DNA from: Verrucomicrobiia bacterium
GTDB taxonomy: Bacteria > Zixibacteria > MSB-5A5 > DSPP01
Length of the DNA: 64,000 nt
Assembly (NCBI GenBank): GCA_035574275.1
Contig: DATLYY010000003.1
Span: 20,482 to 84,481, forward strand
Reading direction: 5' to 3'
In this document: positions 9,043 to 32,332 of the stretch, one piece after another
How the letters are laid out: each line of letters begins with the position of its first letter
How positions within the stretch are numbered: the stretch's first letter is position 1
Program-made: the position numbers and the translations under genes
The notes under the pieces: generated by a model
Told to the model about the DNA's origin: nothing
Databases searched by the model: none
Seen by the model: only the letters and a program-made list of their open reading frames with translations

Positions 9043-9290
9043 GACGGTTCGCGAACCCTCCTCCCCACTTTCTTAAAAATAGCTTTATTCGCCTTAGCCC
9101 CTCCCCAATTTTCTCTGGCTTTCCCCCTATAATTTTTAAAACCGTAAAGTAGGGATAAAACCACAGCCGTTTGCATTGTGCAAAATGGCCCAAAAGTGGC
9201 AAGTCCGGCTTGGACTTACGACTGCACTCTCAAGCACCCCTTTCCGGCATACCCCTTGCCCAACTATTGGCGGGATAAAAGAGGGGGAAA

Positions 9291-9482
9291 ATGCAAGAAG
9301 AAAAAGGGGTCTTAAGCTGGACGGGATTTTTGGGAAAACTGGTGACCATTCTGGGAGCCATCTTTCTCATTCTGGTCGTTTTATCCTGGCTGCGCTGCGG
9401 CGCCCGCCCGTCCGGGAGCCAACCCGTATCGGAAACCCGCCTTCAACATTCCGGTGTAACCGGGTTCTTGCATATCCGCTGA
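9291..9482 (+). CDS. small hydrophobic protein (63 aa) upstream of the M6 protease gene; existence uncertain
   Basis: SD-like AGAGGGGG lies 5 nt before the ATG, followed by one predicted TM helix. There are no recognisable motifs and it may be spurious. Confidence 0.25.
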   Translation: MQEEKGVLSWTGFLGKLVTILGAIFLILVVLSWLRCGARPSGSQPVSETRLQHSGVTGFLHIR

Positions 9483-9500: not shown

Positions 9501-11192
9501 ATGCGCCGATTCGTCTTGGGACTGACCATACAGCTTTTCTTAAGCCCGGCACTTTTGGCCATGCCGCCCCATCCGGAGGTTTTGGACAAGATTCAAAGGG
9601 GGGAGTTGAAAGCCCCCCGGCATAATCTGATGGTCAGCGAAGAAGAGCTGGCCAAAGCCGGTTTCAACCCGGCGCAGTTGAAGGCGCTGGCGCCGGCCAA
9701 AACCAAGGCCGCCGGGCCGTTCAATATGCTGGTGGTCATGGTCGATTTTTCGGATAAAAATTCGCAGGTGGCGCCGGTTTTTTTCGATTCGTTGGTATTC
9801 GCCAAAACCCAAAACTCGGTCTGGCGCTATTACGACGAAAACTCCTATGGCAATTTTGATTTGGTTACCTTGAATTATCCCTCTTCCACCGGCTGGCTGC
9901 GGGCGCCGCAGACTTTGGCCTATTATGCGAACGGGACAAACGGCTTCGGGGCCTATCCCCAGAACGCCCAAAAGCTGGTGGAGGATGCCGTGGATTTGAT
10001 AAACCCGCTGGTCAACTTTGCCGATTACGACAACGACAACGACGGCTTTGTAGACGGCATCACCTTTGTTCACGCCGGACGGGGGGCGGAAGTCTCGGGC
10101 AATCCCAACGACATCTGGTCCCACAAATGGGGAATCACCCCGCGGCTGCGGGACGGGGTTTATATCTTCAATTACAGCATGGAACCGGAATATTTTACGA
10201 ACCCCGGCGACGTGACCATCGGCGTTTTCTGCCACGAGTTCGGCCACGCCATCGGCGGGCTTCCGGATCTGTACGACACGGACGGCGGCTCGCAGGGTGT
10301 CGGGCGCTGGAGCGTGATGGCGGGCGGCAGCTGGAACGGCAGCCCGATGGGCGCCTCCCCCGCCCACTTCGACGCCTGGTGCAAAATCGAGCTGGGATTT
10401 GCCGTGGCGGGCGTGATTGCAAATAACCAGACCGGCGTCCGGATTCCGTATGCCGAGCGATCCAATGCCGGAATTTTCCGGCTCTGGACGAACGGCACCA
10501 TCGGCCCGGAATATTTTCTGGTGGAAAACCGCCAGCGCCGGGGATACGACACGGCCTTGACTTCCTCCGGTCTTTTAATCTGGCACATCGACGACACGGT
10601 TTCTTCCGGCAACAACCGCCCCTGGTACCCGCCGAACAGCCCGTCCACCGGCCATTACAAAGTCGCCTTGGTGCAGGCCGACAATCTCTTTCAACTGGAA
10701 AAAAATCTGAACAGCGGCAATTCCGGTGACCCCTATCCCGGCTCGACGGTGAACCGGAATTTCCACGCTTCCTCCGCTCCCAATTCCAACGGCTATGCGG
10801 GAGCCGGCTCGTTGGTGCAGGTGACCAACATCTCCAACTCCGGCGACACGATGACCGCCGATTTCTTCGTGCAGGCGCCGACCGACGTGGATGACGGGAT
10901 CTTCAACCGGCCGAAAAACTTTCAACTGGCGCAGAATTATCCGAACCCCTTCAACCCGGCCACCGTGATTGCCTACACGCTGGAAAAAAGCGGCCCGGTG
11001 GAGTTGCAGATTTTCAATCTGCTGGGGGAAAAGGTGAAGACGCTGGTTTCCGGCCATCAGGGGGCGGGACTGCATCAAAAAAGCTGGGATGGCAGGGACG
11101 AATCCGGCCGGGTAGTTTCCTCCGGGCTGTATCTGTACCGGCTGCGGCTGGAAAAGTTTGCCGAAACCAAAAAAATGATGCTCGTGCGATAA
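9501..11192 (+). CDS. secreted M6-family (immune-inhibitor-A-like) zinc metalloprotease with a C-terminal Por/T9SS-type sorting domain
   Basis: Signal peptide, HEFGHAIG zinc motif in M6-like context, and a C-terminal ~80 aa (NYPNPFNP...SGLYLYRL...KMMLVR) matching the T9SS type-A CTD pattern. Confidence 0.8.
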   Translation: MRRFVLGLTIQLFLSPALLAMPPHPEVLDKIQRGELKAPRHNLMVSEEELAKAGFNPAQLKALAPAKTKAAGPFNMLVVMVDFSDKNSQVAPVFFDSLVFAKTQNSVWRYYDENSYGNFDLVTLNYPSSTGWLRAPQTLAYYANGTNGFGAYPQNAQKLVEDAVDLINPLVNFADYDNDNDGFVDGITFVHAGRGAEVSGNPNDIWSHKWGITPRLRDGVYIFNYSMEPEYFTNPGDVTIGVFCHEFGHAIGGLPDLYDTDGGSQGVGRWSVMAGGSWNGSPMGASPAHFDAWCKIELGFAVAGVIANNQTGVRIPYAERSNAGIFRLWTNGTIGPEYFLVENRQRRGYDTALTSSGLLIWHIDDTVSSGNNRPWYPPNSPSTGHYKVALVQADNLFQLEKNLNSGNSGDPYPGSTVNRNFHASSAPNSNGYAGAGSLVQVTNISNSGDTMTADFFVQAPTDVDDGIFNRPKNFQLAQNYPNPFNPATVIAYTLEKSGPVELQIFNLLGEKVKTLVSGHQGAGLHQKSWDGRDESGRVVSSGLYLYRLRLEKFAETKKMMLVR

Positions 11193-11306: not shown

Positions 11307-13094
11307 TTGAATATGCCGGAGAAGCTCGGACGGTGGAGTTTTACGTTGAAACTTTCCACCCTGCTTTTGATTTTGTTTTTTTTGATCAGCAATTTTTCCT
11401 TTCTCTGGCTTTCCTACCGGGCCAAAAACGCGCTGAAAACCGAGATTAAAGTAAAACTTGAAGCCGCCGCCGCCCAGCTCTCCCGCCTGGCCGGGAATTC
11501 CTCCCGCCCGGAAGAGGCCCGGGCTCTGGTGCAGAAGTTTCTTTTCGAGCGGGAGCTTTTGGCCGTCGGTTTTTTCAACGGCCCCCTCCCCACCGTCTGG
11601 ACCGCCCTGGACAACAAAACCGGCTTTGCAACCGACTACCGGCCGGTGAATGAGCCGTCACTTTCCGGCCCGATTGAATTCGGGGGGCATTTCACGATAA
11701 CCTACTCCTTTCCGGCGGGAACCAACCGGCCGGCCGGTTTCGTCATCGCCCAAGCCGATCCGCTGGGAAGGTTGGAGGAGCTTTTCCGGCTGCAGACCTT
11801 CTTCTGGATTCTGGGGTTCCTTTTAATGGCCGCCACGGTGAGCCTGCTCTGGCGCTTTGTCTTGGCCCCCTTCGAGGCGGTGGAGAAAAAGGCGGCCGAG
11901 GCCCATCTTGCTCCGGCCAAAACACCGGGGGAGGACCCGGCCGAACTGGTCATCGCCCGGTTTGAAAAAGCGCTGGCCGAGCTGAAAGCCAAGGAACAGG
12001 AGCTTTCCCGGCTGTACGAGGAATCGGAGAAAAAGGCCCTGCATTACTCCGCTTTGAGCAAACATTTAATCGACAGTTTGGGCTCCGGCATTGTCATCTT
12101 CGACCCGAACGGGGACATTGTTGATTTCAACCCCGCCGCGGGACTGCTTTTGGGATTGAATGAAAACCGGCGGCTTCCCGGATCGCTGAAAAAAGTTCTG
12201 CCGGAGGTGAAGCCGGGACACCCGGCCGAAAGCGTTGAACTGGAAGTGCAGATGGGAGGGCAGACCAAAATATTGGCCGTTTCCGCCTCCGCCATCACGA
12301 ACCCTAACGGGGAAAATTTGGGAAAGGCCCTTCTGGTCTCCGATTTGACCGATTTCAAGGAAATGGAAACAAAATTGAAGGAAAAGGAGCACTGGGCCTT
12401 TTTGGGGGAAACCGCCGCCGGGCTGGCCCACGAACTGCGCAACGCCCTTGCCGTGATGGTCGGTTACGGAAAACTTTTGGCCAAGGCGGTGGGGGAGGAC
12501 CACCCTTCGCACAAAACCGCCGGCGAACTTCTGCGGGAATCCCAGGCCGCCGAGGAGACCCTGAAACGGTTTTTGGAATACGCCCGGCCGGGAGAGGTGT
12601 TTCTTGAAACTCTGGACTTGCGGGGGCTCTTGGAAGAAACCATCGCCTCGCTCAAACCCCGCTTCCCTTCCGCGGGCTTCCGGCTAAACGCCCCCCTGGA
12701 GGCCTCCGTCCGTTCGGATGCCGCCCTGCTCAAGCAGATTTTTTCCAACCTGATTTTAAACGGCGCCGAGGCGGCCGGGGATGGGGGAATGGTTAAAGTA
12801 ACGCTTGAAGCTTCTCAAACTCCGATGGGATGGAAAATCGAAGTCGCCGATTCCGGCCCGGGCGTTGCCGAAACAGAAAAAGAGAAGCTTTTCACCCCCT
12901 TTTTTACAACCAAGCGGGACGGCACCGGGCTGGGGCTGGCTTTGGCCAAAAAGGCCGTTCACCTGCTGGAAGGGGAGATTCGGCTAAAGGACGGAACCAA
13001 GGGAGCTGTATTTACCGTAACCCTGCCTGCTGAACGGTTACGGAATCTGCCCGGCAAAGATGAAGTTCAAAAAAAGCACCACGTCCGCGGATGA
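11307..13094 (+). CDS. membrane sensor histidine kinase (two TM helices, PAS-like region, HisKA plus HATPase_c)
   Basis: H-box LAHELRNALAV and G-boxes (GTGLGLALAKK) are present. No cognate response regulator is adjacent. Confidence 0.85.
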   Translation: MNMPEKLGRWSFTLKLSTLLLILFFLISNFSFLWLSYRAKNALKTEIKVKLEAAAAQLSRLAGNSSRPEEARALVQKFLFERELLAVGFFNGPLPTVWTALDNKTGFATDYRPVNEPSLSGPIEFGGHFTITYSFPAGTNRPAGFVIAQADPLGRLEELFRLQTFFWILGFLLMAATVSLLWRFVLAPFEAVEKKAAEAHLAPAKTPGEDPAELVIARFEKALAELKAKEQELSRLYEESEKKALHYSALSKHLIDSLGSGIVIFDPNGDIVDFNPAAGLLLGLNENRRLPGSLKKVLPEVKPGHPAESVELEVQMGGQTKILAVSASAITNPNGENLGKALLVSDLTDFKEMETKLKEKEHWAFLGETAAGLAHELRNALAVMVGYGKLLAKAVGEDHPSHKTAGELLRESQAAEETLKRFLEYARPGEVFLETLDLRGLLEETIASLKPRFPSAGFRLNAPLEASVRSDAALLKQIFSNLILNGAEAAGDGGMVKVTLEASQTPMGWKIEVADSGPGVAETEKEKLFTPFFTTKRDGTGLGLALAKKAVHLLEGEIRLKDGTKGAVFTVTLPAERLRNLPGKDEVQKKHHVRG

Positions 13095-16305: not shown

Positions 16306-17100
16306 CTATCGGATAGCCAGGAACCGCTCCGTGTAAAGGGAAATCAGCTCCCCGCCCCAGTAGTAGGCCACGAGCGCGGCGATTACCAAAAACGGGCCGA
16401 ACGGAATCAGCCGGTCCGCCAGCGATTTCGGTTTCAACAACCGGATGACGAAGAAGGTTAAAACGGCGACCAAGGAGGCCAGAAAGAAAACCAAAAGAAG
16501 CTTTTGCCACCCCAAAAAGGCCCCCAGCATCGCCGCCATTTTGACGTCCCCCCCGCCCATGCTTTCCTTTTTGAAGATTAACTCGCCGGCATGGGCCAAA
16601 AGAAGAAATCCGCCGCCGCCGACTATAAGGCCGATAAGCCCGTTCTGCCAGCCGACTGCCGGATTCAAGAATGCATACCCCATTCCCAAGAGAATGCCGG
16701 GGAGGGTGAACCAGTCCGGGATTATTCGGAATTCAAGATCGATGAAGAAAATGACCACCAAGGCAAAATTCAGGTAAAACAGAAAGAAAAGCTTCCATCC
16801 CCAGCCAATCGAAAGGAAGGCGGTCAGAAACAACGCGGCGGTGAAAAGCTCCACGAAAAAATAGCGGGGGGAAATCGGCGTTCTGCAGAACGCGCATTTG
16901 GCGCCCAAAAAAAGATAGCTGAAAAGCGGGACATTCCCCCACCAGGGAATCGTTTTTTGGCAGGCAGGGCAGAAGCTTCGCGGCCGGACGACCGAAAGCC
17001 CGCGCGGCAGCCGGTAAATGACGACATTGGCAAAACTGCCAAAAATCAACCCGAGGGCAAAGGCAACCGCCGCGGGAATAAACTCAAGAATTATCATCAT
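16306..17100 (-). CDS. pilD: type IV prepilin peptidase (A24 family)
   Basis: N-terminal CPAC...CAFC zinc tetrad, GGGDVK motif, and polytopic membrane topology. Confidence 0.85.
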   Translation of the reverse strand: MMIILEFIPAAVAFALGLIFGSFANVVIYRLPRGLSVVRPRSFCPACQKTIPWWGNVPLFSYLFLGAKCAFCRTPISPRYFFVELFTAALFLTAFLSIGWGWKLFFLFYLNFALVVIFFIDLEFRIIPDWFTLPGILLGMGYAFLNPAVGWQNGLIGLIVGGGGFLLLAHAGELIFKKESMGGGDVKMAAMLGAFLGWQKLLLVFFLASLVAVLTFFVIRLLKPKSLADRLIPFGPFLVIAALVAYYWGGELISLYTERFLAIR

Positions 17101-19488: not shown

Positions 19489-20643
19489 TTAATCAAACAG
19501 ATTCGCCATCTGGCTCCGCAGCGGCTGTCCGCTCCGCTTGCGGGCAATTACCTTCAAAAAGTCGTTGGCCGCCCGGTTAACATCCAAAAGGTCAAGAAGC
19601 CCGGAGGAAGCCGGGTCGTAATTCCTTTTTTCATGCATGAAGGCAAACATCGCCTGCGCCAGGCTTTCCGGGTCGTGCGGCGGAACCACTTTTCCCAAAC
19701 TGAACTTTCGAACCAGATACCCCATATCCCCCACGTCCGTGGCGATCACCGGCGTTCCGGAGGCCACCGCTTCGGTCAAAACGAGCGGAATGGAGTCGGA
19801 ATGGCTGGGGATCAAAACGCAGGCGGCCCGGCGCAGATAGGTCGCCGCCTCCTTTTCAGAAATTTTACCGTGAAAAATTGCCTTGTCCCCCAGTTTCAGC
19901 TCGGCCAACCGTCTGGGGATTTCGCCGGCCAAACTTCCCCAGCCGGCGATTTCCAGGACCGCCGGCTTCTTTTTCGCCACGTAGGAAAAGGCCAGAAGCA
20001 TATCCTCGATTCCCTTTTCCCGCTCCAGCCGGCCCAGATAGAAAAAGCGGTTGTAGTTTGTTTTGGGAAGAACCGTCCGTTTTTCGCGGCGGCGGGCGGA
20101 GGGGAGAAAACGGCACTCCCGGCCGGAAAGCTCCTCCACCTTCTGGCACAAATCAAACCCGTCGCCGAACAGATGGTCGGCCCCCTGCAGAACCTGGCGG
20201 GTCAAAAGCCCGAAAAAGGGGCGCTCCGACCATTTGTACACGTCCGAGCCGAGACACCAGACGGAGTACGGAATGCCGGTGCGCTGGCTCAAGTAGCGGG
20301 CGAAGTAGCCGGAAGGGAGCGCCCACAAAGCCAAAAGATAATCGACATCGTGGGTGAGCACGAACGGCATCGCCGCCTTCCGCCCGCTGTAAAGAAAGTT
20401 GGCCAGCTTGAGCCAGTTGAGCGGATTTTTGTAATTCAGCGAGCCGATGGGGGCAATCGAGCCGGACCAGGGGAAGCGGAAAACCTCCGGGTCGCTGGCG
20501 GGATGATCCACGACGTATTCCGGCGTGAAAACAGAAACTTTATGCCCCCTTTCGCGCAGGGCATGGACGAAGTCCTTCACGAACGGGCTGGCGGTATCCC
20601 CCTTCCCGGCCGGATAGCGGTTGGTGACAAGCCCCAGCTTCAT
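19489..20643 (-). CDS. GT4-family glycosyltransferase
   Basis: Glyco_trans_4 N-domain and GT1/GT4 C-domain with an E...E motif region (LIPSHSDSIPLVLTEAVASGTPVIATDVGD). Confidence 0.85.
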   Translation of the reverse strand: MKLGLVTNRYPAGKGDTASPFVKDFVHALRERGHKVSVFTPEYVVDHPASDPEVFRFPWSGSIAPIGSLNYKNPLNWLKLANFLYSGRKAAMPFVLTHDVDYLLALWALPSGYFARYLSQRTGIPYSVWCLGSDVYKWSERPFFGLLTRQVLQGADHLFGDGFDLCQKVEELSGRECRFLPSARRREKRTVLPKTNYNRFFYLGRLEREKGIEDMLLAFSYVAKKKPAVLEIAGWGSLAGEIPRRLAELKLGDKAIFHGKISEKEAATYLRRAACVLIPSHSDSIPLVLTEAVASGTPVIATDVGDMGYLVRKFSLGKVVPPHDPESLAQAMFAFMHEKRNYDPASSGLLDLLDVNRAANDFLKVIARKRSGQPLRSQMANLFD

Positions 20644-21704
20644 ACCTTCACCTTCTCTCTATTTCTCTTTTCGACCCGCACTTGAAAATCCAACTGTTCT
20701 TTTCCGCCGGAAAGCTCTTCCAGTTTCAGCATTGTTTCCTTGGCCGTTTTTTGGATACGGTAGATTTCCCGCTTTAAGTGCACGAGCTGGGTGCCGAGGA
20801 AGCCGAAAAACAAAGTCGCCAGACCGGCCAGGAAAGCCAGTACCGTAAGAGTGACCAAAGGCCGGGTCGGGTTCAAATTCCCTTCTTGCCAGAGATACCA
20901 GATATACACCGCCCCGCCAAACGAAAGCAAAACCAGAAACAAACCGACCCCGCCGAAAAGCAGAACCGGCTTTTCATGGAAGGAGAACAGGATGTGGGAA
21001 ACCGCCGTGGCGGTGAATTTGAACTTTGATTTCCCCAGCTTGCGGGCTTTCAAAACCGCAGGCATTTCGACCACGCGATAGCCCATACCAAGGGCACGGG
21101 CCAGAATTTCGAGATGAATTTCCTTCCCTTCCGCTTCCAGCTCCAGCGCTTCCAGAACCTTCTTGCGGTAGCCCCGCACCATTCCAGTGACGGTGGCCAG
21201 CCCCCTCTTCATGGCGAAGCCCAAAATTTTGTTCCCCAGCTTGGAAATCCAAAGCCGCCACAAAGGGACGTTTTCCACCCCGCCTCCCTTGGTATAAGGC
21301 GAGGCGACCACGATATCCACTTCTGGGTGGGCCTGCAGAATTTGGGCCATCGCCAAAAGATATTCCTCGCTGTAGGACAAATCGGCGTCGGCGGTGATGA
21401 TGATTTCCTTGGCGGAGGCGGCGAACCCCTGCCGCAGCGCCCAGCCCCGCCCGCGGTTGGGGAAATAGGAGACGAGCCGGACGCGCGGCTCCTGCTCGGC
21501 AAAGCTCAAAACCGAAAGCGCCGTCCGGTCGGTGGAGCCGTCATCCACGGCAATGATTTCCCAATCCCCGCCAATGGCCCGGAAGGCGGCGGCGATGCGG
21601 GACAAAGTCGAGGAGACGTTTTGCTCCTCGTTGTACATCGGCACCACCACGGAGACGCCGTATAATTGTCTTTGCAGTGACCTGTTATCTTGTCGTTTTT
21701 TCAT
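20640..21704 (-). CDS. GT2 polyprenyl-phosphate glycosyltransferase (Dpm1/GtrB/ArnC-like) with C-terminal TM anchors
   Basis: VVVPMYNEE...DDGSTD...DAD (DxD) GT2 core followed by two C-terminal TM helices, the architecture of polyisoprenyl-phosphate hexose synthases. Confidence 0.85.
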   Translation of the reverse strand: MKKRQDNRSLQRQLYGVSVVVPMYNEEQNVSSTLSRIAAAFRAIGGDWEIIAVDDGSTDRTALSVLSFAEQEPRVRLVSYFPNRGRGWALRQGFAASAKEIIITADADLSYSEEYLLAMAQILQAHPEVDIVVASPYTKGGGVENVPLWRLWISKLGNKILGFAMKRGLATVTGMVRGYRKKVLEALELEAEGKEIHLEILARALGMGYRVVEMPAVLKARKLGKSKFKFTATAVSHILFSFHEKPVLLFGGVGLFLVLLSFGGAVYIWYLWQEGNLNPTRPLVTLTVLAFLAGLATLFFGFLGTQLVHLKREIYRIQKTAKETMLKLEELSGGKEQLDFQVRVEKRNREKVKV

Positions 21705-23784
21705 CTTCTCGCCCCATCGGTTTTAATTTGTCCGGTAAAAGCCAGTTCCCCTCCGCCCGGGCCTCCTTGGCCTCGTCAAATTTTCCCTGCTCCTGAAGTG
21801 CCGTGGCCAGAAAAAAGTACGCCTCTCCCCAGTATGGATCATAAGAAAGCGCCAGCTTAAAGCAGGTCTCGGCCAAAGGATACTGCCGGGCATAGAGGTA
21901 CGCCTTACCCACCGTGACCCAGGTGCGCGGGTTCTCGCCGTCGTATTCCGTCGCCAGTTTGAGCAAATCATCGGTCTCCGGAGCACCAATCTTGGACAAG
22001 TAGGCCCCCCAATTGTATATTTCTAATTCTAAGCTTTCCCGCGTGAGTTTATCCGACCCCCCGATGTAGGTCTTGCGCACAAAGTTCACCACCTGCTTCG
22101 GCACCTCCAGCCCCACCTTCTCTCGCCGGAATTCAAGGAGATAGTCGAAGGGCCAAAAGTAGCGACAATCGCTGATGTGATACCCCAGCTGGGTGAAAAT
22201 CGGCCGTTCGTTTTTTTGACAGAACGCCGCAAAGCCGCGCCGGAGTTGAGTCAACGGTTTGGCACTATTCGGGATTGAATCGATAATCAAATCCGGATAA
22301 CGGTGCCGTGTCCATTCGGCCAAGTGCGGTTGAAAAAAAACATTTGACAAGACAATGGCCACATCCGGCCTTTGCCCCAAAGCCCCCTGCTGGTACAAAG
22401 CGGCGGTCAGCAGGCGGTCGGAAGAGTAAACAACGACGGCGTTGGGCGGCAGGGAACGCAAGCTCTCTTCCGCAATTTTTTGCGGCCAGCTGCTCTGATG
22501 TAAATCGCATTCGCCCCAATTTTTTGCCGCCAAAAAAAGACCAAATGACATCGTAAGAACGGGAACTGCCCAGCTAATTTTTAGCGCAAATCGGGACACG
22601 CCCTTTGACAGCCAAGTAAGGACTTGCATCAAACCCGCCGTCGCCGTCAAAACAGCCAGTCCGGTCCCAAAAGAGAGATATCCCAAGATATCCATATTAT
22701 AGGGGTTGAATTCCGCCGCCCACAAGGTCACCAGAAAATTGGACAACAAAAGCACAAAAACACCCAGGCCGATCCGGGGTAAATGATGCGCGAGTACAAG
22801 AGCTCCCGGGATGACTAAAAGCCAGAAAACCGCCGAAAATTCCGATTGAAAAAAGACCGCGAGCCGCATCATATTGGGATAGGAAACGTTGGTCGGCGTG
22901 TCGTCGATGGACTCCTGCCAACTGCCGGAACGGGTGAGGGCGGCCCAGAAACGCTCCCAATTGTCCGGCTGGTTCCAGTTGAAATACGGGTCCTGGGCGG
23001 AGCGGATGGGCAAAAACAAATACATCGTGGCCGCAAGCAGGATTAGACCGGCCACCCAACCCCATTTAGACAGTTCTTCTTTCCAGTTGTCGGATTTATA
23101 ACAGCCCATAATTAAAAGCCCCGGCAAAATCGAAACCGACTGCAGCGGATGATTGGTGGCCGAAAGTCCCCACAGAAACGCACCCAAAAGGAAAAAATGG
23201 GTTGGCTTATCGATCTTTTCCAACGACAGCGCAATCAGCAGAACCGAAAAGATCAATATCAACTGTAGAGAGTACACTTCCGCCCGCACGGCCTGCAGCC
23301 AGACCGTCTGGCTGAAGGCAAAAACCAAAGCCGCTCCCAGCGCCGTTAAAGTCACAACCGCAGGATTTGTCGCCAAAACACCGGTCGTTTCCTCTTCCCT
23401 TATCGTGGAGGATTGGGGCTTGTCCCGAGAGAAGTCGAGGGAAGGGGTTACAAAAATATCCGCCAAAACCTTTTTAACGCACAGGAAGAATAGAGCCGCT
23501 CCCGCCGCCCCAAAAAGCCCGCACATCATATTGGTGGCCCGTGCGGGGTTATGCGGAATAAGCCAACTGAAAAGCTTGCCAATCAAAACCCACAACGGAA
23601 AGCTGGGCGAATGAGGTAAGCTAAGGGTGGCCGCCGCCATCGAAAAGGTGGCGGAATCCTCCCAGAAGGGTCCCGGCGCGGCCGTGTAGAAATAGACCCC
23701 CAAAGGCAAAATGAACGAGGCCAAAAGACAAAAACGCTCCAAGCGGTTATCCATATCCCCTTTCTTGTTTTCGGTAAAAAACAC
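21685..23784 (-). CDS. DUF2723 (TMEM260/PMT-like, predicted GT-C fold) polytopic membrane protein with C-terminal TPR repeats
   Basis: About 11 TM helices, a conserved N-terminal DxD-like loop (PGPFWEDSATF), and a C-terminal TPR pair. The family is related to protein O-mannosyltransferases. Confidence 0.8.
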   Translation of the reverse strand: MFFTENKKGDMDNRLERFCLLASFILPLGVYFYTAAPGPFWEDSATFSMAAATLSLPHSPSFPLWVLIGKLFSWLIPHNPARATNMMCGLFGAAGAALFFLCVKKVLADIFVTPSLDFSRDKPQSSTIREEETTGVLATNPAVVTLTALGAALVFAFSQTVWLQAVRAEVYSLQLILIFSVLLIALSLEKIDKPTHFFLLGAFLWGLSATNHPLQSVSILPGLLIMGCYKSDNWKEELSKWGWVAGLILLAATMYLFLPIRSAQDPYFNWNQPDNWERFWAALTRSGSWQESIDDTPTNVSYPNMMRLAVFFQSEFSAVFWLLVIPGALVLAHHLPRIGLGVFVLLLSNFLVTLWAAEFNPYNMDILGYLSFGTGLAVLTATAGLMQVLTWLSKGVSRFALKISWAVPVLTMSFGLFLAAKNWGECDLHQSSWPQKIAEESLRSLPPNAVVVYSSDRLLTAALYQQGALGQRPDVAIVLSNVFFQPHLAEWTRHRYPDLIIDSIPNSAKPLTQLRRGFAAFCQKNERPIFTQLGYHISDCRYFWPFDYLLEFRREKVGLEVPKQVVNFVRKTYIGGSDKLTRESLELEIYNWGAYLSKIGAPETDDLLKLATEYDGENPRTWVTVGKAYLYARQYPLAETCFKLALSYDPYWGEAYFFLATALQEQGKFDEAKEARAEGNWLLPDKLKPMGREDEKTTR

Positions 23785-23810
23785 CTTTTCCGTAACCCTT
23801 TCCCCCTCTC

Positions 23811-23852
23811 CGCGTCGGAGAGGGGGTTAGGGGGTGAGGTTAACAGAGCAAA
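23811..23852 (-). repeat. copy 1 (diverged) of the 42-nt hairpin element CCCCTCTCCG(c/t)GTCGGAGAGGG-TTAGGG-GAGGTTAA
   Basis: Shares the 9-bp stem / 3-nt loop and the TTAGGGnGAGGTTAAC tail with copies at 33856-33898 and 37924-37965. Confidence 0.6.
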
Positions 23853-23857
23853 AAAAA

Positions 23858-23889
23858 GCCCCCCGTACGGGGGGCTTTTTCGTGACGCA
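23858..23889 (-). terminator. bidirectional rho-independent terminator (A8-GCCCCCCGTACGGGGGGC-T5)
   Basis: Perfect 8-bp GC stem flanked by A and T runs, just downstream of the pilin gene stop. Confidence 0.8.
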
Positions 23890-23892
23890 AGG

Positions 23893-24327
23893 TTACTGTA
23901 TCGCGTCGTCGGTCGTGACGATGAGGTTTCCGGTTTGATCAATCTGCCAAGTATCAACCGTCGCGTCGTCGTCCAGGTCTTTGGCGAGAGCCCGCGCCCG
24001 ACAGGTGAAAGCCGTAGCATTCGCCACGGTGAAGTCATAGGAGTAACGGGCGGTTAACCCGATTTCCACGCCAATACTGTCAAAGGCGTTCGGCGTCGCC
24101 GGACCGGCTATCAAAGCAGTTGACCAATATCGGTCTTTTTCCTGCCGAAAGGCCTGCTGCATCGTGTAAACCTGCTTCAGAATCTGCTTGGCTTCCGACT
24201 GTTTGGACTTGGTCGTCGCGCGCATAAAACGCGGAATCGCCAGAGCCGCCAGAATACCGATGATGACCACCACGATCATCAGCTCGATAAGGGTGAAACC
24301 CTTCTGGCTGTTTTTCTTGTTGAACAT
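23893..24327 (-). CDS. type IV pilin (class III signal peptide MFNKKNSQKG|FTLIELMIVVVIIGILAA)
   Basis: Canonical prepilin leader with Gly-1, Phe+1 and Glu+5. GGGAGG lies 6 nt before this ATG, and an upstream ATG at 24357 is less likely. Confidence 0.85.
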   Translation of the reverse strand: MFNKKNSQKGFTLIELMIVVVIIGILAALAIPRFMRATTKSKQSEAKQILKQVYTMQQAFRQEKDRYWSTALIAGPATPNAFDSIGVEIGLTARYSYDFTVANATAFTCRARALAKDLDDDATVDTWQIDQTGNLIVTTDDAIQ

Positions 24328-24377
24328 CTGTTCCTCCCTTTGGTTATTGGTTTTCATAATCGTCGGCTAACAGTTAC

Positions 24378-24393
24378 GCAACCCCAATGCCAA
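24378..24393 (-). promoter_or_regulatory. sigma-54 -24/-12 promoter (TTGGCAT-N5-TTGCG) upstream of pilin 1
   Basis: The minus strand reads TGGCATTGGGGTTGCG: GG-N10-GC spacing with a TGGCA -24 and TTGC -12, about 50 nt upstream of the pilin ATG. Confidence 0.55.
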
Positions 24394-24554
24394 AAGATGC
24401 CCAAGCCGGGCATTTTTTCGGCCTCGCAAGTGATTTGTTTACAAACGGTTACAGAAGGCCGCAAACTCCAGGCGGGTTTCAAACCCGCCCCTACACGGAT
24501 TCCAAGGGTAACCCGCCAATTATTTTGCAAAATGCGAATGATCAGAATGGTCTT

Positions 24555-24618
24555 TGTAGGGGCGGGTTTTAAACCCGTCCCTTGCCACCATCCGGGCAGG
24601 TTTAAAACCTGCCCCTAC
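24555..24618 (+). repeat. REP doublet (BIME-like): GTAGGGGCGGGTTTTAAACCCGTCCCT ... GGGCAGGTTTAAAACCTGCCCCTAC
   Basis: Two palindromes of 25-27 nt separated by an 11-nt spacer, 38 nt upstream of the RAYT start. Confidence 0.8.
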
Positions 24619-24655
24619 CATTGACAAACCGAAATGTCCATGCATTTTTTGCCGA

Positions 24656-25264
24656 ATGTCAATAGAGAACCGGCCTAAACCCCAGCGCCGTTCCATTCGG
24701 CTGCGGGGCTACGATTATTCCAGGGAGGGTGGATATTTCATAACCATCTGCACTGGGAATAGAGAATCTCTCTTTGGCGAAATCATAGATGGCCAGATGC
24801 GATTGAATGACCTCGGGCTGATAGTCCAGAAGGTTTGGGATGAATTGCCCGAACATTACCCGTCGATTGAATTGGATAAATTTGTCATTATGCCCAATCA
24901 TATTCACGGGATTATCATCCTTGTAGGGGCGGGTTTGAAACCCGCCCTTTCCACCCCCCGGGCAGGTTTAAAACCTGCCCCTACAGGTGAAAATTCGAAG
25001 AAACGTTCACTGGCGGAAATTGTCCGGGCGTTCAAGACATTCTCTGCTCGACGAATAAACGAATTTCGACGAATGCCGGGCCTTCCCATCTGGCAACGGA
25101 ATTATTACGAACATATTATCCGCAATGAATCCTCCCTAAACAAAATCCGGGAATACATTAAGGGCAATCCATTGAATTGGGCCTTGGACATCGAAAACCC
25201 GGCCATTTTATCCAATCCGAATAGCCGCCGAAGCGAAGAAAAATTCTGGAACGTATCGGCGTAA
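24656..25264 (+). CDS. REP-associated tyrosine transposase (RAYT, IS200/Y1-like) carrying an in-frame REP-doublet insertion
   Basis: HUH motif (HIHGII) and a C-terminal WQRNYYEHIIRNE tyrosine helix. Between them, 22 residues (VGAGLKPALSTPRAGLKPAPTG) are encoded by a REP doublet at 24922-24985. Confidence 0.8.
   Translation: MSIENRPKPQRRSIRLRGYDYSREGGYFITICTGNRESLFGEIIDGQMRLNDLGLIVQKVWDELPEHYPSIELDKFVIMPNHIHGIIILVGAGLKPALSTPRAGLKPAPTGENSKKRSLAEIVRAFKTFSARRINEFRRMPGLPIWQRNYYEHIIRNESSLNKIREYIKGNPLNWALDIENPAILSNPNSRRSEEKFWNVSA
24922..24985 (+). repeat. REP doublet located inside the RAYT coding sequence
   Basis: Near-identical to the 24555-24618 doublet. The reading frame is maintained. Confidence 0.8.
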
Positions 25265-25282
25265 ATGGCCGGTGAGGCACAA

Positions 25283-25315
25283 CAAAAAAGCCCCGCTCTT
25301 GCGGGGCTTGATTTA
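25283..25315 (-). terminator. bidirectional rho-independent terminator (A6-GCCCCGC-TCTT-GCGGGGC-TTGATTT)
   Basis: Hairpin between the convergent RAYT and pilin-2 3' ends. Confidence 0.7.
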
Positions 25316-25333
25316 ATCGTGCCGATTCTTGAC

Positions 25334-25771
25334 TTACAATATCGCGTCGTCGGAAGTGACAACCAGATTGCCGGTATTGTCAATTTGCCAGACATCAGCG
25401 GCCGGATCCGTGTCTAAAGCCGGAGAACTGGCAGTTGCGACGCAGATAAAAGCGGTGGCATTTGCAACTGTCATTGTATAGGTATATCTTGAGTTTGAAG
25501 CAATATCGACACCAATCCGTGCAAAAGCCGTGTCTGCTCCGTTTGCATAAGCAGAAACGCCGGCTCCCCAATATCCATCGTACTGCTGTCTGTAAGATAG
25601 CTGCATTGTATAAACTTCCTTTAAAATCGTTCTTGCCTCCGACTGCTTGGCTTTGACGGTTGCCAACATGAAACGCGGCAGAGCCATCGCCGCCAAAATG
25701 CCGATGATAACCACCACAATCATCAACTCTATCAAGGTGAACCCTTTGTCCCGTCTCATAAGTTTAGGCAT
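25334..25771 (-). CDS. type IV pilin paralog (leader MPKLMRRDKG|FTLIELMIVVVIIGILAA)
   Basis: Canonical class III signal. The mature N-terminal 45 aa are about 85% identical to pilin 1 and the C-terminal beta domain is diverged. The ORF track start (25828) is probably too long. Confidence 0.85.
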   Translation of the reverse strand: MPKLMRRDKGFTLIELMIVVVIIGILAAMALPRFMLATVKAKQSEARTILKEVYTMQLSYRQQYDGYWGAGVSAYANGADTAFARIGVDIASNSRYTYTMTVANATAFICVATASSPALDTDPAADVWQIDNTGNLVVTSDDAIL

Positions 25772-25794
25772 ACGTCCCTCGCACCCCTTTTTAT

Positions 25795-25810
25795 GGCAAA
25801 CCCCGTTCCA
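25795..25810 (-). promoter_or_regulatory. sigma-54-like -24/-12 promoter (TTGGAAC-N5-TTTGCC) upstream of pilin 2
   Basis: GG-N10-GC spacing, 24 nt upstream of the ATG at 25771. Confidence 0.5.
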
Positions 25811-25979
25811 AAACCGCTTTATTTTCATCTTCCTTGTCCATCAACGACTTACCTTGCCGCGGGGCTTTTTGGGTTCCGAAGAGGCCATTGGCGGCGAGCC
25901 GGCCGCCTTGCGTTCTGCAAGGGTTATCTCCTTTTCCAGCTTGAAAAGTCGCCAATTCACTACGCTTCTTTCAACCTGA

Positions 25980-26408
25980 TTAGGATCTCGTATCGTCAGA
26001 AACAACCACCAATGAGCCTTTCTCGTCAATCGTCCACACGTCTGTCGTAGCGTCGCCATCCAAAATACCAGAAGTTGCTCTACAGACAAAAACACTGTCA
26101 TAAACTACCGTGAAAACATAGGAATAGCGATTGGTGCAATTAAAATCCACACCAATCGGGAGAAATGCATACGGATTTGCTGCGGAGCCTTCGATACCTC
26201 CGGCTGGCCAAAAAACTCCGGTATTCTGCCGATAAGCCAATTGCTGTTGATAAATTTCCTGCAACTTTGATTTGGCTTCATCCTGCTTGCTTGGTGTTGG
26301 CGGGGCGATCGTTATATATTTTGTTTCAGTACAGCCCCAAGCCAGCAACATTAAGACCGTCAAACCCAAAACCACAATCTCCTCAATTCCAAACTTTCTT
26401 GTTTTCAT
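25980..26408 (-). CDS. pilin-like paralog with a degenerate prepilin leader replaced by a lipoprotein-like signal (…LLAWGC)
   Basis: The C-terminal 90 aa align with pilins 1/2 (NRYSY.FTV...DVW.ID..G.LVV.SDD). The N-terminus lacks G|F..E and instead has a hydrophobic core followed by Cys. Confidence 0.6.
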   Translation of the reverse strand: MKTRKFGIEEIVVLGLTVLMLLAWGCTETKYITIAPPTPSKQDEAKSKLQEIYQQQLAYRQNTGVFWPAGGIEGSAANPYAFLPIGVDFNCTNRYSYVFTVVYDSVFVCRATSGILDGDATTDVWTIDEKGSLVVVSDDTRS

Positions 26409-26422
26409 ATCTTCCTCCTACT

Positions 26423-26438
26423 GCAAAGCTTGTTCCCA
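26423..26438 (-). promoter_or_regulatory. sigma-54-like -24/-12 promoter (TTGGGAAC-N4-TTTGCA) upstream of pilin-like 3
   Basis: GG-N10-GC spacing with the TTGCA -12 element. The -12 lies only 15 nt from the ATG. Confidence 0.45.
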
Positions 26439-26468
26439 AACCCCAGCGTCGCCGTTCTCTATTCTACG

Positions 26469-28486
26469 CTAACGACTTGACTGCCTTTTCGATTTCTTTG
26501 GCTCCATCGCAGCAATTGGAGCCGACCCTGCTTTCTTGCTTTCTGCAAGGGTTATTTCTTTTTCCAGCCTCATTATTCTCTTTTGCACTTCCTCCCCCTT
26601 CTCCCCCCAAGCGACGGTTTTGTGATAGCGGTTCAAGGCCTTCTTTTTCGCCCCGCGCCATTCGTAGTACAAGCCGGAGCGGTAGAGGTACAGAACGAGC
26701 ATTTTGACCGCCTGCGGGTCGTTCTGCATCACCCGGTCATCCGCCGTCCAGAGATTGGAAACCTCCCACATCAACTGCCGCTCGAGGGAAACGGTGTCCA
26801 GAACGAAGGGGGTGTCTATCAATTGGAAGAGAAAGCCGGTCGGCTGCAAGCGCTCGACCAAGTCCTTGTCCCGCTCGGTGAATTCCAGAAAAACCGGGAC
26901 TTTTTTCTGCGTCAGCCGCGTGGTCCAATGACGGAAAAGCGCATCCCCCTCTCTTTTCTTCGGCTTGGAGGAAAAGACCGTGGTGAGACGGGGAAAATTC
27001 TCAACCAAGCTTTTGCGGTACCAATCCGCCTCCATAAACGCCCGGTTCACCACCACCACGTCCTTGCGCCACCCCTCGCCGTATTGCACTCCGCGCAGAA
27101 CAAAATCGAGCGCGGGGGAATCGAGAAAAACCACCCCCCCCGGAGGAACGGGGGAAAGCGCCTCCTGCGCCATCTTCAAGGCAATTCGGTTTTCAGATAG
27201 GTCGCATAGGGGACGGGAAAAGGTCCAGGGGATCAAACTGAATAGCAAAAACAGACCCGCCAGCCCTACGCGGGCAAAGCCGACCAGAAAATTGGAAACC
27301 GCGCCGACGGCATGCTCCACCACGCCAAAGAAGGCCGCAATGGTCGTGGCGATGCCGAGCCCCAAGGCAAAAAGGGAAAAGACCAGATAGCCGTGCAAAT
27401 CCGGATTGTCCGGGATAACCTCGGCCGCCAGGAGGGCGGTGACCAAAAGGTTGCCGGCGAGCAGGAAAGCCGCCTTCCAAAACCAGCTTTTGTTTGTGAA
27501 AAGCAGAATCAAAAACCCGCCGAAGGCAAAGAAGAAAAGTCCCATTCCAAGCTGGTCAAACAAAACGGACAAAAGTTGGTGCATCTTTACCAGATTGTCG
27601 ATGAACGAGGTGGAAATGGTTTTGTAGGAATCGGTGGCCAAGACCAGATTGGCGGTGGAGGCAAAATCGGCCGGTCCCCCCCAGTTGAAAAGCGGCTGGC
27701 TCCAGGCCCGCACGGGCAGGTAGAGATAGGTTGAAATTCCAAGCAGAAACAAGAAGAACAAACCCATCCATTTTTTAAAATTCAAGCTGGTAAAGGTGGA
27801 CGGCCCCGCCACGGCGAAAAGAAACGGGAAGGTGGCCAAAAGAGTGATGTGGTGATTCCCCAATCCGAGAAACGCGACGAAAATTCCGAGCCAGAACCAG
27901 CGGGCTGTGGCATGATTCCCAACTTTGACTACGGCCGGCGTATAGTCGCCGCTTTCCTCGCCGAAGGACTCGAAGCCGGGCCGCGGAAAGGAAGCGGAGG
28001 GCTGCCTTGCCGCTTCGGGGCGGGGCGGCGGCGTTGCCCGCAGAAAACAATAAAGGGCAAAAGTGAACAAAAACGCCCCCAAGGTATAAACCTCCGCCCG
28101 CACCGCCTGAATCCAGAAAGTGAAAGTGAAACCGATGGTCAAAGTGGTGAAGAAAGCCACCAGATTCCGCCGGGCCGCCGAGCCCCCCAAAAGTTCGTTC
28201 TGTCTTTTCAAAAACATTACCAGCGAAAGATGGAAGAAAACAAGCGCCAAGGCGCCGCAAAAACCGGAGAAAAGATTCTGCTGATAAACAAACCCGCCGA
28301 TGGGCAGGTAGCTGAAAAGCTTGGCCATAAGAACGTAGAGCGGAAACCCCGGCCGGTGCGGTACGCCGAGCGTCTTGACATTGGCCACCAACTCGCCGGA
28401 ATCCCACCAGAAAACGGAGGGGGCAGTGGAAACGAGATACACCAGAAAGAAGAAGAAGAAAAGAAAACTTGGCCCCAGCGCCTTTT

Positions 28487-28490
<4 letters not shown>
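26469..28490 (-). CDS. second DUF2723 (TMEM260/PMT-like GT-C) membrane protein paralog
   Basis: Same polytopic architecture and conserved N-terminal loop (PSVFWWDSGEL) as 21685-23784. The start is set to MKKALGPSF (28490), directly after the stop of the response-regulator gene. The ORF track N-terminal extension (to 28781) overlaps that gene. Confidence 0.8.
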
Positions 28491-29848
<1,358 letters not shown>

Positions 29849-29966
29849 ACTCCCCCATTTTGGGCCAAAAGTAAACGGCCCCCTTTCCTTATTTTATCGG
29901 CAAATTTTGTGGAATTTTCAGAGGGAAATGCAAATAGAAACGCTGTGCGGGTGAAGCAGCCCCGCC

Positions 29967-31214
29967 CTATTCTTTCGGCTCTTTTTGGCCGGAGCCGAAG
30001 ATATCCAGCATTTTTACGCCGGGAGTGTATTCGAGGGTGGCCGGCTCCGTGATGCGCATCAAGGCGGCGGTCACTTCTTGAATGCGCCCGGCCGCTTCCT
30101 CGATGATTTTCAGCTTTTCCTCCACGTCCGGGGGCAGGTCTTTTGTACGCAGGCGGACCAACTGGGCGTTCCCGATGACCGCCGTGAGCGGGTTGTTCAC
30201 CTCGTGGCTGACGGCAATGGCGGTCTCGATGATCGCCGCCAGCCGCTCTTTTTTTATTTCCTCCGACTGGGAGAGGGACAAGGCCATTACCGCCCGGCGG
30301 ATTTCAAGATAGGACAAAACATTTTCCGCCCCGAGCAGAACCGCGGCAAGCTTTTCTAAAACGGCGGTCTTCTGCCCCTCTTCTATTGCGACCGAACTAC
30401 CGAGGTAAAAAAGCCCCCCGAATTTCCCGCCGGTTTTTACCGGGATAATCAAAGCCGACTTCGAGCCGGCCGCCCTGAAGCGTGCCTCCGCCGTCCCCAA
30501 TCGGGACAAAAGTTGAACCTCCCCCTTCCCCCAGAGTTTGCCGAAGGCGGAATGCGGGTCCAGTTCCGAATGGCTTTGTTCCTCGGCGGTGGAAGCTCCG
30601 GCGGAGAGGAAAAATTCGCGGAAGGTTTTTTCCTCATCGAACAAAAACCCGACGAGGTTGAAGCTCTCTTTTTTTAAAAAATTCCGCGCCCAGAAAAGAA
30701 ACGCTCCCGGTTCCAGGGGGGCGACCGGCCTCGCACCCGAATGTGCGATTGCCGCTTCTTTCTGTTTTTGCGAAAGCGTCCGCTCGAAGGTCAGGGCGAA
30801 TTGGATGCCGAGGGCGGAGAGAAACTCCTCATCCCCGGCAAAATTCCGCTCCTTTTTATCCAGCCCTTCGAGCAACCCGAGCGGGCCGAAACTGCCGGAA
30901 ACCGGCACCCCGAAAACCGCGCGGGCTCCTTCCCGCTTGAGCGAAAGATGAAACCCCTCCACTCCGTAGTTTTTTCGCAGCCCGGCCAGCACTTCCTTTT
31001 CCAGTTCGGCCAAGGCCGAAAGCGCCTGTCTTTGCCCGGATTCGATAACGATTTCCTTTTCCCCCAGGAAATTGATGTGCAACGAGAGCGCTTCCAGCTC
31101 TAAAAGTTCGGCAACCTCCCCCAAAATCCGCTTGGCGAGCGGCTCGAACTCCCCCTTGGCCAAGGTAAGCGTTTTTAGGATTTCAAACTTTTTTCTAAAC
31201 CCGGTCTCCGACAT
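29967..31214 (-). CDS. GAF-domain sensor protein with a HisKA phospho-acceptor domain but no HATPase_c domain
   Basis: H-box SHEVNNPLTAVIGNAQL lies near the C-terminus and the protein ends about 75 aa later without N/G1/G2 boxes. A 118-nt non-coding gap follows. Confidence 0.7.
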   Translation of the reverse strand: MSETGFRKKFEILKTLTLAKGEFEPLAKRILGEVAELLELEALSLHINFLGEKEIVIESGQRQALSALAELEKEVLAGLRKNYGVEGFHLSLKREGARAVFGVPVSGSFGPLGLLEGLDKKERNFAGDEEFLSALGIQFALTFERTLSQKQKEAAIAHSGARPVAPLEPGAFLFWARNFLKKESFNLVGFLFDEEKTFREFFLSAGASTAEEQSHSELDPHSAFGKLWGKGEVQLLSRLGTAEARFRAAGSKSALIIPVKTGGKFGGLFYLGSSVAIEEGQKTAVLEKLAAVLLGAENVLSYLEIRRAVMALSLSQSEEIKKERLAAIIETAIAVSHEVNNPLTAVIGNAQLVRLRTKDLPPDVEEKLKIIEEAAGRIQEVTAALMRITEPATLEYTPGVKMLDIFGSGQKEPKE

Positions 31215-31466
31215 AATTCCCCATCCCCCTACCTCGCAAGGCCCATACCGCTCAAACCAAACTCATACCAAATAAACGATTTTTTTGTTGAATAGTAACT
31301 AATTGAAAACAAACTACTTGTGCCGATAAATTAAAGCTTTCTATAATAGCTGACGCCTCAGTTCCCCAATTCCCCCTGCAAGCCGTTTCACATAAGCGGC
31401 CAAAGAGCAAGGAGTTGCCCAAACACAAGCCCCAGCGAATCCCCTCTGTTTTTGGAAATCTTGTTC

Positions 31467-31527
31467 TTGGTAGCCGACACTTCAGTGTCGGTGCATCCAA
31501 TTCCTCGACTACGGTCGAGGCTACCAA
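31467..31527 (-). repeat. 61-nt structured element: outer 7-bp stem TTGGTAG/CTACCAA enclosing two 7-bp hairpins (CCGACAC-TTCA-GTGTCGG and CCTCGAC-TACG-GTCGAGG)
   Basis: Seen directly in sequence, just 3' of the SDR gene. The second hairpin plus GCTACCA recurs at 33818-33842. Confidence 0.5.
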
Positions 31528-31537
31528 CTACCGGAAT

Positions 31538-32332
31538 TTAATATAACGAAACGCCGCCGTCGGCGATGATGGTCTGGCCGACGATCCAGTCCGCTTCTTC
31601 GGAGGCGAGAAAGGCCACCACGTTGGCCAAATCCTCCGGCTGGCCGATCCGCCCCGCAGGGGTGCGTTTGACCGATTCGGCGACTATCTGTTCGTTGCCG
31701 GGAATGATGCGCAAAGAATCAGTATCCACCGGCCCGCCGTTTACGGCGTTCACCAGAATTCCCTTGGGGGCCAAATCGACCGCAAGATAGCGCACCATCG
31801 CCTCGATGGCCGCTTTGTTCACTCCCATTGCCGCATATCCGGGAATGTAGCGCCGCGAGCCGTAGGAAGTGAGCGCGATGATTCTCCCCTTCGGCCCGGT
31901 CATCATCTTGGCCGCCTCCCTGGAGCAGAGATAAAACGAGGTGATGTTGGCGTCTAAAGTCAGCTTCCAGTCCTCGAGCGACATTTCGAGCGTGGGGCCG
32001 AACATCGCCATCGCGGCGTTGGCGACAAACACATCCAGCCGTCCGTACGCTTCCTGCACCTCGCCGAACATCTTTTGAATCGATTCCGGATTGGCCAGAT
32101 TGCCCCGCACCATCACACACTCCGCGCCGAGCGCCTTCACTTCCAATTCGGTTTCCTTGGCCTTCTGGCGGCTTTTGAAAAAGCCGAGCGCCAGCTTGGC
32201 CCCTTCCGCCGCCATTTTCAAAGCCACCGCCCGGCCGATGCCCCGCGTCCCGCCGGTGATTAAAACAACTTTGTCGGTAAAGCGCGCCCCAATGCCGGAG
32301 GCCCTTGCCTGTGTTTCGGTTTGCATTGCCAT
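31538..32332 (-). CDS. SDR-family oxidoreductase (3-oxoacyl-ACP-reductase-like)
   Basis: TGGTRGIGRAV Rossmann motif and a YxxxK-like active-site region. The start is set at MAMQTETQ (ATG 32332) because of the upstream promoter. The ORF track extends to 32446. Confidence 0.8.
   Translation of the reverse strand: MAMQTETQARASGIGARFTDKVVLITGGTRGIGRAVALKMAAEGAKLALGFFKSRQKAKETELEVKALGAECVMVRGNLANPESIQKMFGEVQEAYGRLDVFVANAAMAMFGPTLEMSLEDWKLTLDANITSFYLCSREAAKMMTGPKGRIIALTSYGSRRYIPGYAAMGVNKAAIEAMVRYLAVDLAPKGILVNAVNGGPVDTDSLRIIPGNEQIVAESVKRTPAGRIGQPEDLANVVAFLASEEADWIVGQTIIADGGVSLY

Follow-up and report, generated by a model that had tools for sequence, protein, structure and literature searches.

A probable PilR-like, sigma-54-dependent regulon in Zixibacteria, with a candidate enhancer-promoter module at each pilin-family gene

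The 64,000-nucleotide stretch of DNA analyzed here (the window) comes from contig DATLYY010000003.1 of an uncultured bacterium assigned to the Zixibacteria (GenBank assembly GCA_035574275.1), and contains a type IV pilin locus whose genes were identified by Pfam and NCBIfam scans of the window proteins. On the minus strand, the genes follow in the order kinase-like gene, NtrC-type regulator, TMEM260-like GT-C glycosyltransferase, a pilin-related gene referred to as pilin 3, pilin 2 and pilin 1 (Table 1). Each of the three pilin-family genes is preceded by a -24/-12 element of the sigma-54 type and, farther upstream, by a copy of a palindrome of 13 base pairs (bp). The locus probably represents a PilR-like, sigma-54-dependent pilin regulon, in which one activator would serve all of the pilin-family genes and each gene would have an enhancer-promoter module of its own.

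Pilins 1 and 2 are canonical type IV prepilins with 62.5% identity to one another, and pilin 1 has 5917 homologs at E <= 1e-5. An earlier sequence-only reading of this DNA had counted three pilin genes, but only two carry the prepilin N_methyl motif, and the third has a lipobox-like signal instead of GFTLIE. A scan of species-representative genomes yielded 80 related loci, most of which carry the label Candidatus Zixiibacteriota or that of a related uncultured bacterium; loci of relatives are called L002, L003, L006, L086, L088, L090 and L091 below. The close syntenic loci found by contig look-up keep the gene order of the window. In the window, the start of the GT-C gene overlaps the stop codon of the regulator gene.

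Table 1. Genes and predicted regulatory features of the pilin locus (window coordinates; nt, nucleotides)
Feature	Position	Strand	Remarks
Prepilin peptidase gene	16306-17100		Beyond the glycosyltransferase genes
GT2 and GT1 glycosyltransferases	20640-21704, 19489-20643		After the second TMEM260-like gene
Second TMEM260-like gene	21685-23784	-	With TPR repeats; past pilin 1
Intrinsic terminator after pilin 1	23860-23874	-	GC stem then T8; strong
Pilin 1, canonical type IV prepilin	23893-24327	-	MFNKKNSQKG/FTLIELM, 144 amino acids; N_methyl 7.8e-11
P1, sigma-54 type -24/-12 element TTGGCATTGGGGTTGCG	24377-24393	-	Before pilin 1; -12 C 51 nt from ATG
Candidate enhancer for P1, imperfect palindrome TTGCAAAATGCGA	24525-24537		Centre about 141 nt upstream of -24 GG
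REP-associated tyrosine transposase gene	24656-25264	+	With REP palindromes; between pilin 2 and pilin 1
Intrinsic terminator after pilin 2	25288-25309	-	9-bp stem then T run; strong
Pilin 2, canonical type IV prepilin	25334-25771	-	MPKLMRRDKG/FTLIELM, 145 amino acids; N_methyl 2.8e-11
P2, sigma-54 type element TTGGAACGGGGTTTGCC	25795-25811	-	Before pilin 2; -12 C 25 nt from ATG
Candidate enhancer for P2, palindrome TTGCAGAACGCAA	25908-25920		Centre about 106 nt upstream of -24 GG
Pilin 3, pilin head-domain paralog	25980-26408	-	N-terminus MKTRKFGIEEIVVLGLTVLMLLAWGC, lipobox-like
P3, sigma-54 type element TGGGAACAAGCTTTGCA	26422-26438	-	Before pilin 3; -12 C 15 nt from ATG
Candidate enhancer for P3, palindrome TTGCAGAAAGCAA	26536-26548		Centre about 106 nt upstream of -24 GG
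TMEM260-like GT-C glycosyltransferase	26469-28490	-	PF11028 5e-25
NtrC-family enhancer-binding response regulator	28487-29848	-	Pfam Response_reg, Sigma54_activat and HTH_8
Sensor-kinase-like protein	29967-31214	-	HisKA and weak GAF match (Pfam)
Probable sigma-54 promoter of kinase-like/regulator operon, GCGGTATGGGCCTTGCG	31235-31251	-	22 nt before kinase-like ATG

Promoter elements upstream of the pilin-family genes

The sequence-only reading had reported three minus-strand motifs with exact GG-N10-GC spacing, and all three strings (P1, P2 and P3) are indeed present, with the N10 spacing of P3 counted from its second and third G. Compared to the sigma-54 consensus TGGCACG-N4-TTGCW, as quoted in PMC6424431, P1 matches at 9/12 positions, P2 at 10/12 and P3 at 9/12. 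The TGGAAC form of the -24 box seen in P2 also occurs in candidate sigma-N promoter motifs from the flhA/flhF region of P. putida (PMC6424431). The orientation of P1 and P2 and their distances to the gene are workable for sigma-54 promoters. Transcription from P1 is predicted to begin close to 24366, for a leader of some 39 nt, and the pilin 1 ATG at 24327 is preceded by an AGGGAGG ribosome-binding site; the predicted leader from P2 is about 13 nt and includes a GAGGG ribosome-binding site. The predicted pilin 1 leader (24328-24366, minus strand; GACGATTATGAAAACCAATAACCAAAGGGAGGAACAG) is near-invariant among close relatives and contains an in-frame upstream ATG, at 24357, that lacks a ribosome-binding site.

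One alternative is that the three motifs are chance GG-N10-GC matches and that the pilin genes are expressed from unrecognized promoters of the sigma-70 type or as one operon. The loose pattern GG-N8-TTGC is indeed common and is not enriched in the window (48 seen vs 67 expected), and rpoN is a presumed gene of the genome. More selective searches gave a different picture. The pattern TGGMAY-N5-TTGC occurs three times in the window against an expectation of 0.69, with P1 and P2 accounting for two of the three, and an approximate sigma-54 weight matrix placed the three elements at ranks 1, 2 and 6 of about 128,000 window positions on both strands, the highest score being that of P2. The same matrix was applied to 135 related pilin genes from about 80 Zixibacteria-type loci, with the upstream regions of 1030 other open reading frames (ORFs) in related loci as controls. 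Sites of at least 10 bits lie within 250 nt upstream of 66% of the family pilins and 3.3% of the controls, an enrichment of about 20-fold, and sites of at least 12 bits precede 48% and 1.4%, respectively. In a matrix-free version of the test, GGHAY-N5-TTGC was found in 89 of the 135 pilin upstream regions, while each of the other spacers from N0 to N12 was found in 0-3. Furthermore, no sigma-70-like site was detected upstream of any of the three pilin-family genes, the promoter positions are conserved among relatives, and terminators together with an opposite-strand gene divide the locus into units (see below). The three motifs are thus strongly non-random as judged by these comparisons, and an origin by chance is highly improbable.

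Conservation could be followed for each element separately. The P1 core, TTGGCATT..GGTTGC, is invariant in 8 aligned relatives in which the flanks vary, and its distance to the ATG is 49-51 nt in 7 loci. The distance from P2 to the ATG is 24-26 nt in the window, L002, L003, L086, L088, L090 and L091, and P2 also aligns with the L006 copy. P3 has orthologs in L090 (TTGGAACGGACTTTGCA) and L091 (TTGGATCGGACTTTGCA), at an identical distance of 15 nt. Two or more family pilins occur in 53 loci; a site precedes every pilin in 24 of these and some of the pilins in 26. Based on the enrichment, the spacer specificity and these multi-pilin loci, the possession of separate, predicted sigma-54-type promoters by pilin paralogs is a lineage-wide feature.

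A variant of P1 was encountered in L005, a contig from another sample that encodes a pilin identical to that of L003. The P1 position in this contig (about 95-111) reads TTGGGATTAGAGTTCCA, with changes in the -24 box as well as in the -12 GC. Either this is a promoter-down variant that arose naturally, or the contig was assembled wrongly.

A common palindrome and the adjacent regulator

Alignment of the upstream regions revealed a 13-bp palindrome, TTGCA-N3-TGCAA, that precedes all three promoters and is a candidate enhancer (upstream activating sequence). The palindrome block at P1 is invariant in 8 relatives, including those free of repetitive extragenic palindromic (REP) elements. The P2 copy sits in a non-coding remnant of a glycosyltransferase gene 3' end, and the P3 copy lies inside the 3' end of the GT-C gene itself. 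All 11 copies that were aligned, 8 from coding DNA and three from non-coding remnants, have an invariant palindrome, and no variation was seen at the four-fold degenerate codon positions that fall within it. The possibility that the palindrome is conserved as an artefact of coding is weakened by these invariant four-fold sites and by retention in the non-coding remnants.

The palindrome is also strongly associated with the pilin promoters of the family. Among 87 sigma-54-associated pilin upstream regions, 41% contain it with no mismatch and 67% with at most one, as compared to 1.4% and 4.1% of random 180-nt controls. Of 129 upstream regions, 45 contain TTGC-N5-GCAA, and other spacers are seen in 0-3. 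The whole window contains five palindrome sites with at most one mismatch, and three of these are the pilin sites.

The sole perfect TTGCA-N3-TGCAA in the window, TTGCATTGTGCAA (9171-9183), is located elsewhere, with its centre about 69 nt upstream of the GG of a sigma-54-like sequence, CCGGCATACCCCTTGCC (9244-9260, plus strand). This sequence precedes an ORF at 9291-9482 (63 amino acids, membrane-like) and another at 9501-11192 that encodes a secreted M6 peptidase of the immune inhibitor A type. The 9171-9260 site and the M6 peptidase genes may constitute a fourth member of the regulon.

The surroundings of P1 are rich in repeats of a different kind. Five REP palindromes of the GTAGGGGCGGGTTTGAAACCCGCC type lie within 24468-24985, around the REP-associated tyrosine transposase gene. 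A REP doublet inside the transposase ORF (24922-24985), read as VGAGLKPA...AGLKPAPT, probably disrupted that ORF. Another REP copy (24468-24495) falls between the P1 enhancer and P1; the enhancer-promoter spacing is kept at 141-143 nt in the window, L002, L003 and L006, with or without a REP-like insert.

The cluster had been said to encode an NtrC-type activator with a GAFTGA motif, and the Pfam domains of the 28487-29848 product bear this out. The protein has a REC domain, a sigma-54 AAA+ domain with GAFTGA (at 29194) and a Fis-type helix-turn-helix (HTH), and it is the only GAFTGA activator encoded in the window. In at least 51 loci the pilins have an ortholog of the regulator (52-96% identity) directly upstream, and the recognition helix of the HTH is nearly invariant. 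The palindrome is likely to be the enhancer for this adjacent activator.

The sequence-only reading took the three promoters as a sign that the paralogs are individually regulated or switched, so that each promoter would answer to a different signal or activator. The promoter cores do differ (GGCAT...TTGCG vs GGAAC...TTGCC/A), as do the enhancer-promoter distances (141 vs 106 nt), and pilin 1 forms a physically separate unit. However, the same palindrome is found at all three promoters, the window encodes a single GAFTGA activator, and the promoters are not flanked by any invertible element or recombination sites, the nearby repeats being the REP elements of the REP-associated transposase. Because the palindrome is common to all three and only one GAFTGA activator is encoded in the window, co-activation is favored, and differential or switched expression of the paralogs appears unlikely.

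The regulator itself may be subject to similar control. The element before the kinase-like gene, GCGGTAT-N5-CTTGCG, is kept in six relatives with a variable spacer, which suggests that the regulator operon is also sigma-54-dependent. A second sigma-54-like match, GGGCAACTCCTTGC (31407-31420, minus strand), is found some 190 nt upstream of the kinase-like gene, within a block that is kept in four relatives and beside hairpins 3' of the upstream SDR gene. In the gap between the kinase-like and regulator genes (29849-29966, minus strand), a TAAAAT/TATAAT-like box is conserved and a GGGGCC...GGCCC hairpin directly precedes the regulator ribosome-binding site; these may give the regulator a constitutive promoter of its own or act as an attenuator.

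Transcription units and the third pilin-family gene

The suggestion that the three genes are not transcribed as one operon holds for pilin 1. This gene is separated from pilin 2 by the terminator after pilin 2 and by the transposase gene on the opposite strand, and it has a terminator of its own; as predicted from these features, pilin 1 is its own monocistronic transcription unit. The independence of pilin 3 and pilin 2, on the other hand, is unsupported, no terminator having been found from the glycosyltransferase gene through pilin 3 to pilin 2. Read-through from the glycosyltransferase gene into pilin 3 and pilin 2 is therefore possible. An Rfam scan of 23000-32000 detected no known RNA.

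Pilin 3 resembles the other two proteins only in part. Over residues 38-139 it shares 47% identity with pilin 1, but the protein has no Pfam or NCBIfam match (neither N_methyl nor TIGR02532), and it lacks the class III signal (short basic leader, G at -1, F/M at +1, E at +5, hydrophobic helix) that pilins 1 and 2 carry. In place of this signal it reads KFG/IEEIVV...LLAWGC, and the N-terminus, MKTRKFGIEEIVVL...LLAWGC, resembles a lipoprotein signal (LLALGC in L090). Pilin 3 may thus be a lipid-anchored, pilin-derived protein.

Orthologs of pilin 3 are present in L090 (5701-6126) and L091 (1503-1931), whereas L002, L003, L006, L086 and L088 have pilins 2 and 1 only, and the gene is limited to a small sub-clade. 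The ratio of nonsynonymous to synonymous substitution rates (dN/dS) is 0.12-0.20, indicating purifying selection and hence a working gene; on the basis of this ratio and of the orthologs, a decaying duplicate was rejected. In three genomes (those of the window, L090 and L091), a remnant glycosyltransferase 3' end occupies the DNA ahead of pilin 2, and we therefore infer that pilin 3 arose by tandem duplication of a unit made up of this 3' end, the promoter and the pilin.

The promoter of pilin 3 presents a special problem. An AGGAGG ribosome-binding site (26414-26419) lies between the -12 box and the ATG, and the predicted +1 of P3, only about 3 nt before the ATG, would be downstream of this conserved site. 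One way to accommodate the arrangement is to suppose that P1 and P2 are working promoters and that P3 is for the most part a copy left by the duplication, with pilin 3 expressed largely by read-through from the regulator-glycosyltransferase operon using AGGAGG. The short distance from the -12 C to the ATG fits this proposal, as do the missing terminator between the glycosyltransferase gene and pilin 3 and the G that P3 of the window has at -26, where relatives keep T. Yet the element and its 15-nt distance have been kept in three genomes with a synonymous divergence of 0.6-1.1, while the remaining intergenic DNA has diverged; the L090 ortholog is very strong, at 18.8 bits; and the palindrome is at the same distance as for P2. 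Furthermore, bacteria can translate very short leaders. On balance, a P3 that is mainly a relic is possible, though the less likely reading. Since the predicted +1 excludes the AGGAGG site, pilin 3 would be expressed either from a nearly leaderless P3 mRNA or mainly from read-through transcripts, or by both routes.

Genes for glycosyltransferases are prominent around the pilins. TMEM260-like genes (PF11028, GT-C type, O-mannosyltransferase-like) flank the pilin genes on both sides, a layout that is kept in relatives and that suggests pilin glycosylation. The related loci also have a pair of methyltransferase genes, situated after the glycosyltransferases and before the prepilin peptidase.

Regulatory interpretation and relation to known systems

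The preferred interpretation is that the locus is a PilR-like regulon with one activator and a module for each pilin-family gene, each module pairing a -24/-12 promoter with the 13-bp palindrome, about 106-141 nt farther upstream. The activated NtrC-type regulator would bind the palindromes, contact sigma-54 RNA polymerase at the -24/-12 elements and open the promoters using ATP, and the paralogs would be activated jointly, with a separate start site for each. The P2 promoter would be an internal one at the end of the regulator-glycosyltransferase operon, with P2 and P3 both internal to or ending the regulator operon. The regulator probably autoregulates, because its operon has a similar promoter. 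The pilin 3 gene, as a presumed tandem duplicate of the promoter-pilin unit, would now encode a pilin head behind a lipoprotein-like signal. The motifs and their spacing specificity, the conservation and synteny, the terminators and the purifying selection are matters of direct observation, and from them we infer the use of sigma-54, the binding of the palindrome by the regulator, the start sites and the co-regulation of the pilin-family genes.

Several observations, in addition to the placement of P3, weigh against this interpretation. Adjacency is the sole link between the palindrome and the regulator that is presumed to bind it. The reported site of P. aeruginosa PilR is TGT-N11-ACA, not TTGCA-N3-TGCAA, and the recognition sequence would therefore differ. 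The regulator falls under the cut-off of every NCBIfam equivalog; its best matches are AtoC, ZraR and NtrC, and no PilR-specific model is among the 25 matches listed. In the Pfam scan the kinase-like protein (29967-31214) has no HATPase_c domain. The weight matrix is approximate, having been modelled on the published consensus, although the spacer test needs no matrix. Finally, a regular expression for the RpoN box found no match in the window and the related loci searched, the remainder of the genome being outside that search, and the presence of rpoN is presumed from the conserved GAFTGA regulators alone.

The HisKA-only domain content of the kinase-like protein and its length of 415-421 amino acids recur in L003, L086, L088 and L090, and the lack of HATPase_c is therefore no artefact of truncation. 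The window encodes a complete PAS-HisKA-HATPase_c kinase elsewhere (11307-13094, plus strand).

Control of pilA by PilR and sigma-54 has been described in Geobacter sulfurreducens (PMC2725144) and Xanthomonas oryzae (PMC8657755), and references given in PMC3333781 attribute the same control to Pseudomonas aeruginosa and Myxococcus xanthus. The parallel with these systems that the sequence-only reading had drawn stands, in that conserved -24/-12 motifs adjoin an NtrC-type enhancer-binding protein. As in PilS-PilR/pilA, an NtrC-type regulator gene lies upstream of the pilins, and the pilin gene is equipped with a -24/-12 promoter of its own and, farther upstream, with a site for the activator, here a candidate one. 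The Zixibacteria locus differs in its kinase-like neighbor, which lacks the ATPase domain found in PilS, in the GT-C glycosyltransferase gene between regulator and pilins, in the two to three paralogs with modules of their own, and in its uncultured host phylum. The promoters resemble canonical sigma-54 promoters in their exact GG/GC spacing, their TTGC -12 box and a palindromic site about 100-160 nt upstream, while the 15 nt between P3 and the start codon is unusually short. No IHF-like site was identified, and no search was aimed at IHF sites.

A further precedent is DVU2114, a response regulator from Desulfovibrio vulgaris that depends on sigma-54; related species conserve its binding motif ahead of their pilin genes (PMC3333781). 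Both cases combine a sigma-54-dependent response regulator with a motif kept upstream of pilin genes in relatives; the Desulfovibrio system controls pilins of the Flp/Tad type and was mapped experimentally by DNA-affinity-purified chip (DAP-chip), whereas the pilins considered here are type IVa-like, with evidence of a comparative kind only. A literature search turned up nothing relevant on Zixibacteria with type IV pili or sigma-54, and no direct precedent for tandem pilins with sigma-54 promoters.

The core finding is to be expected, since control of pilins by sigma-54 and PilR is textbook knowledge. A more ambitious version, which we offer tentatively and regard as a good deal less secure, is a phylum-wide Zixibacteria regulon in which a PilR-like activator reads an undescribed palindrome with a HisKA-only partner that could not autophosphorylate alone; its targets would be the pilin paralogs, a lipoprotein-routed pilin head on a near-leaderless mRNA, the operon of the regulator itself and, perhaps, one for a secreted M6 protease.

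In its more modest form, which comparative data support strongly, the probable regulon carries a known arrangement over to an uncultured phylum, and it supplies a concrete candidate enhancer sequence and a set of promoters for a regulator that cannot yet be studied in culture. Several pilin paralogs would be wired to one activator rather than switched, and the pilin-derived, lipoprotein-like gene and the glycosyltransferase genes provide leads on how the pilus of these bacteria may be built and decorated.

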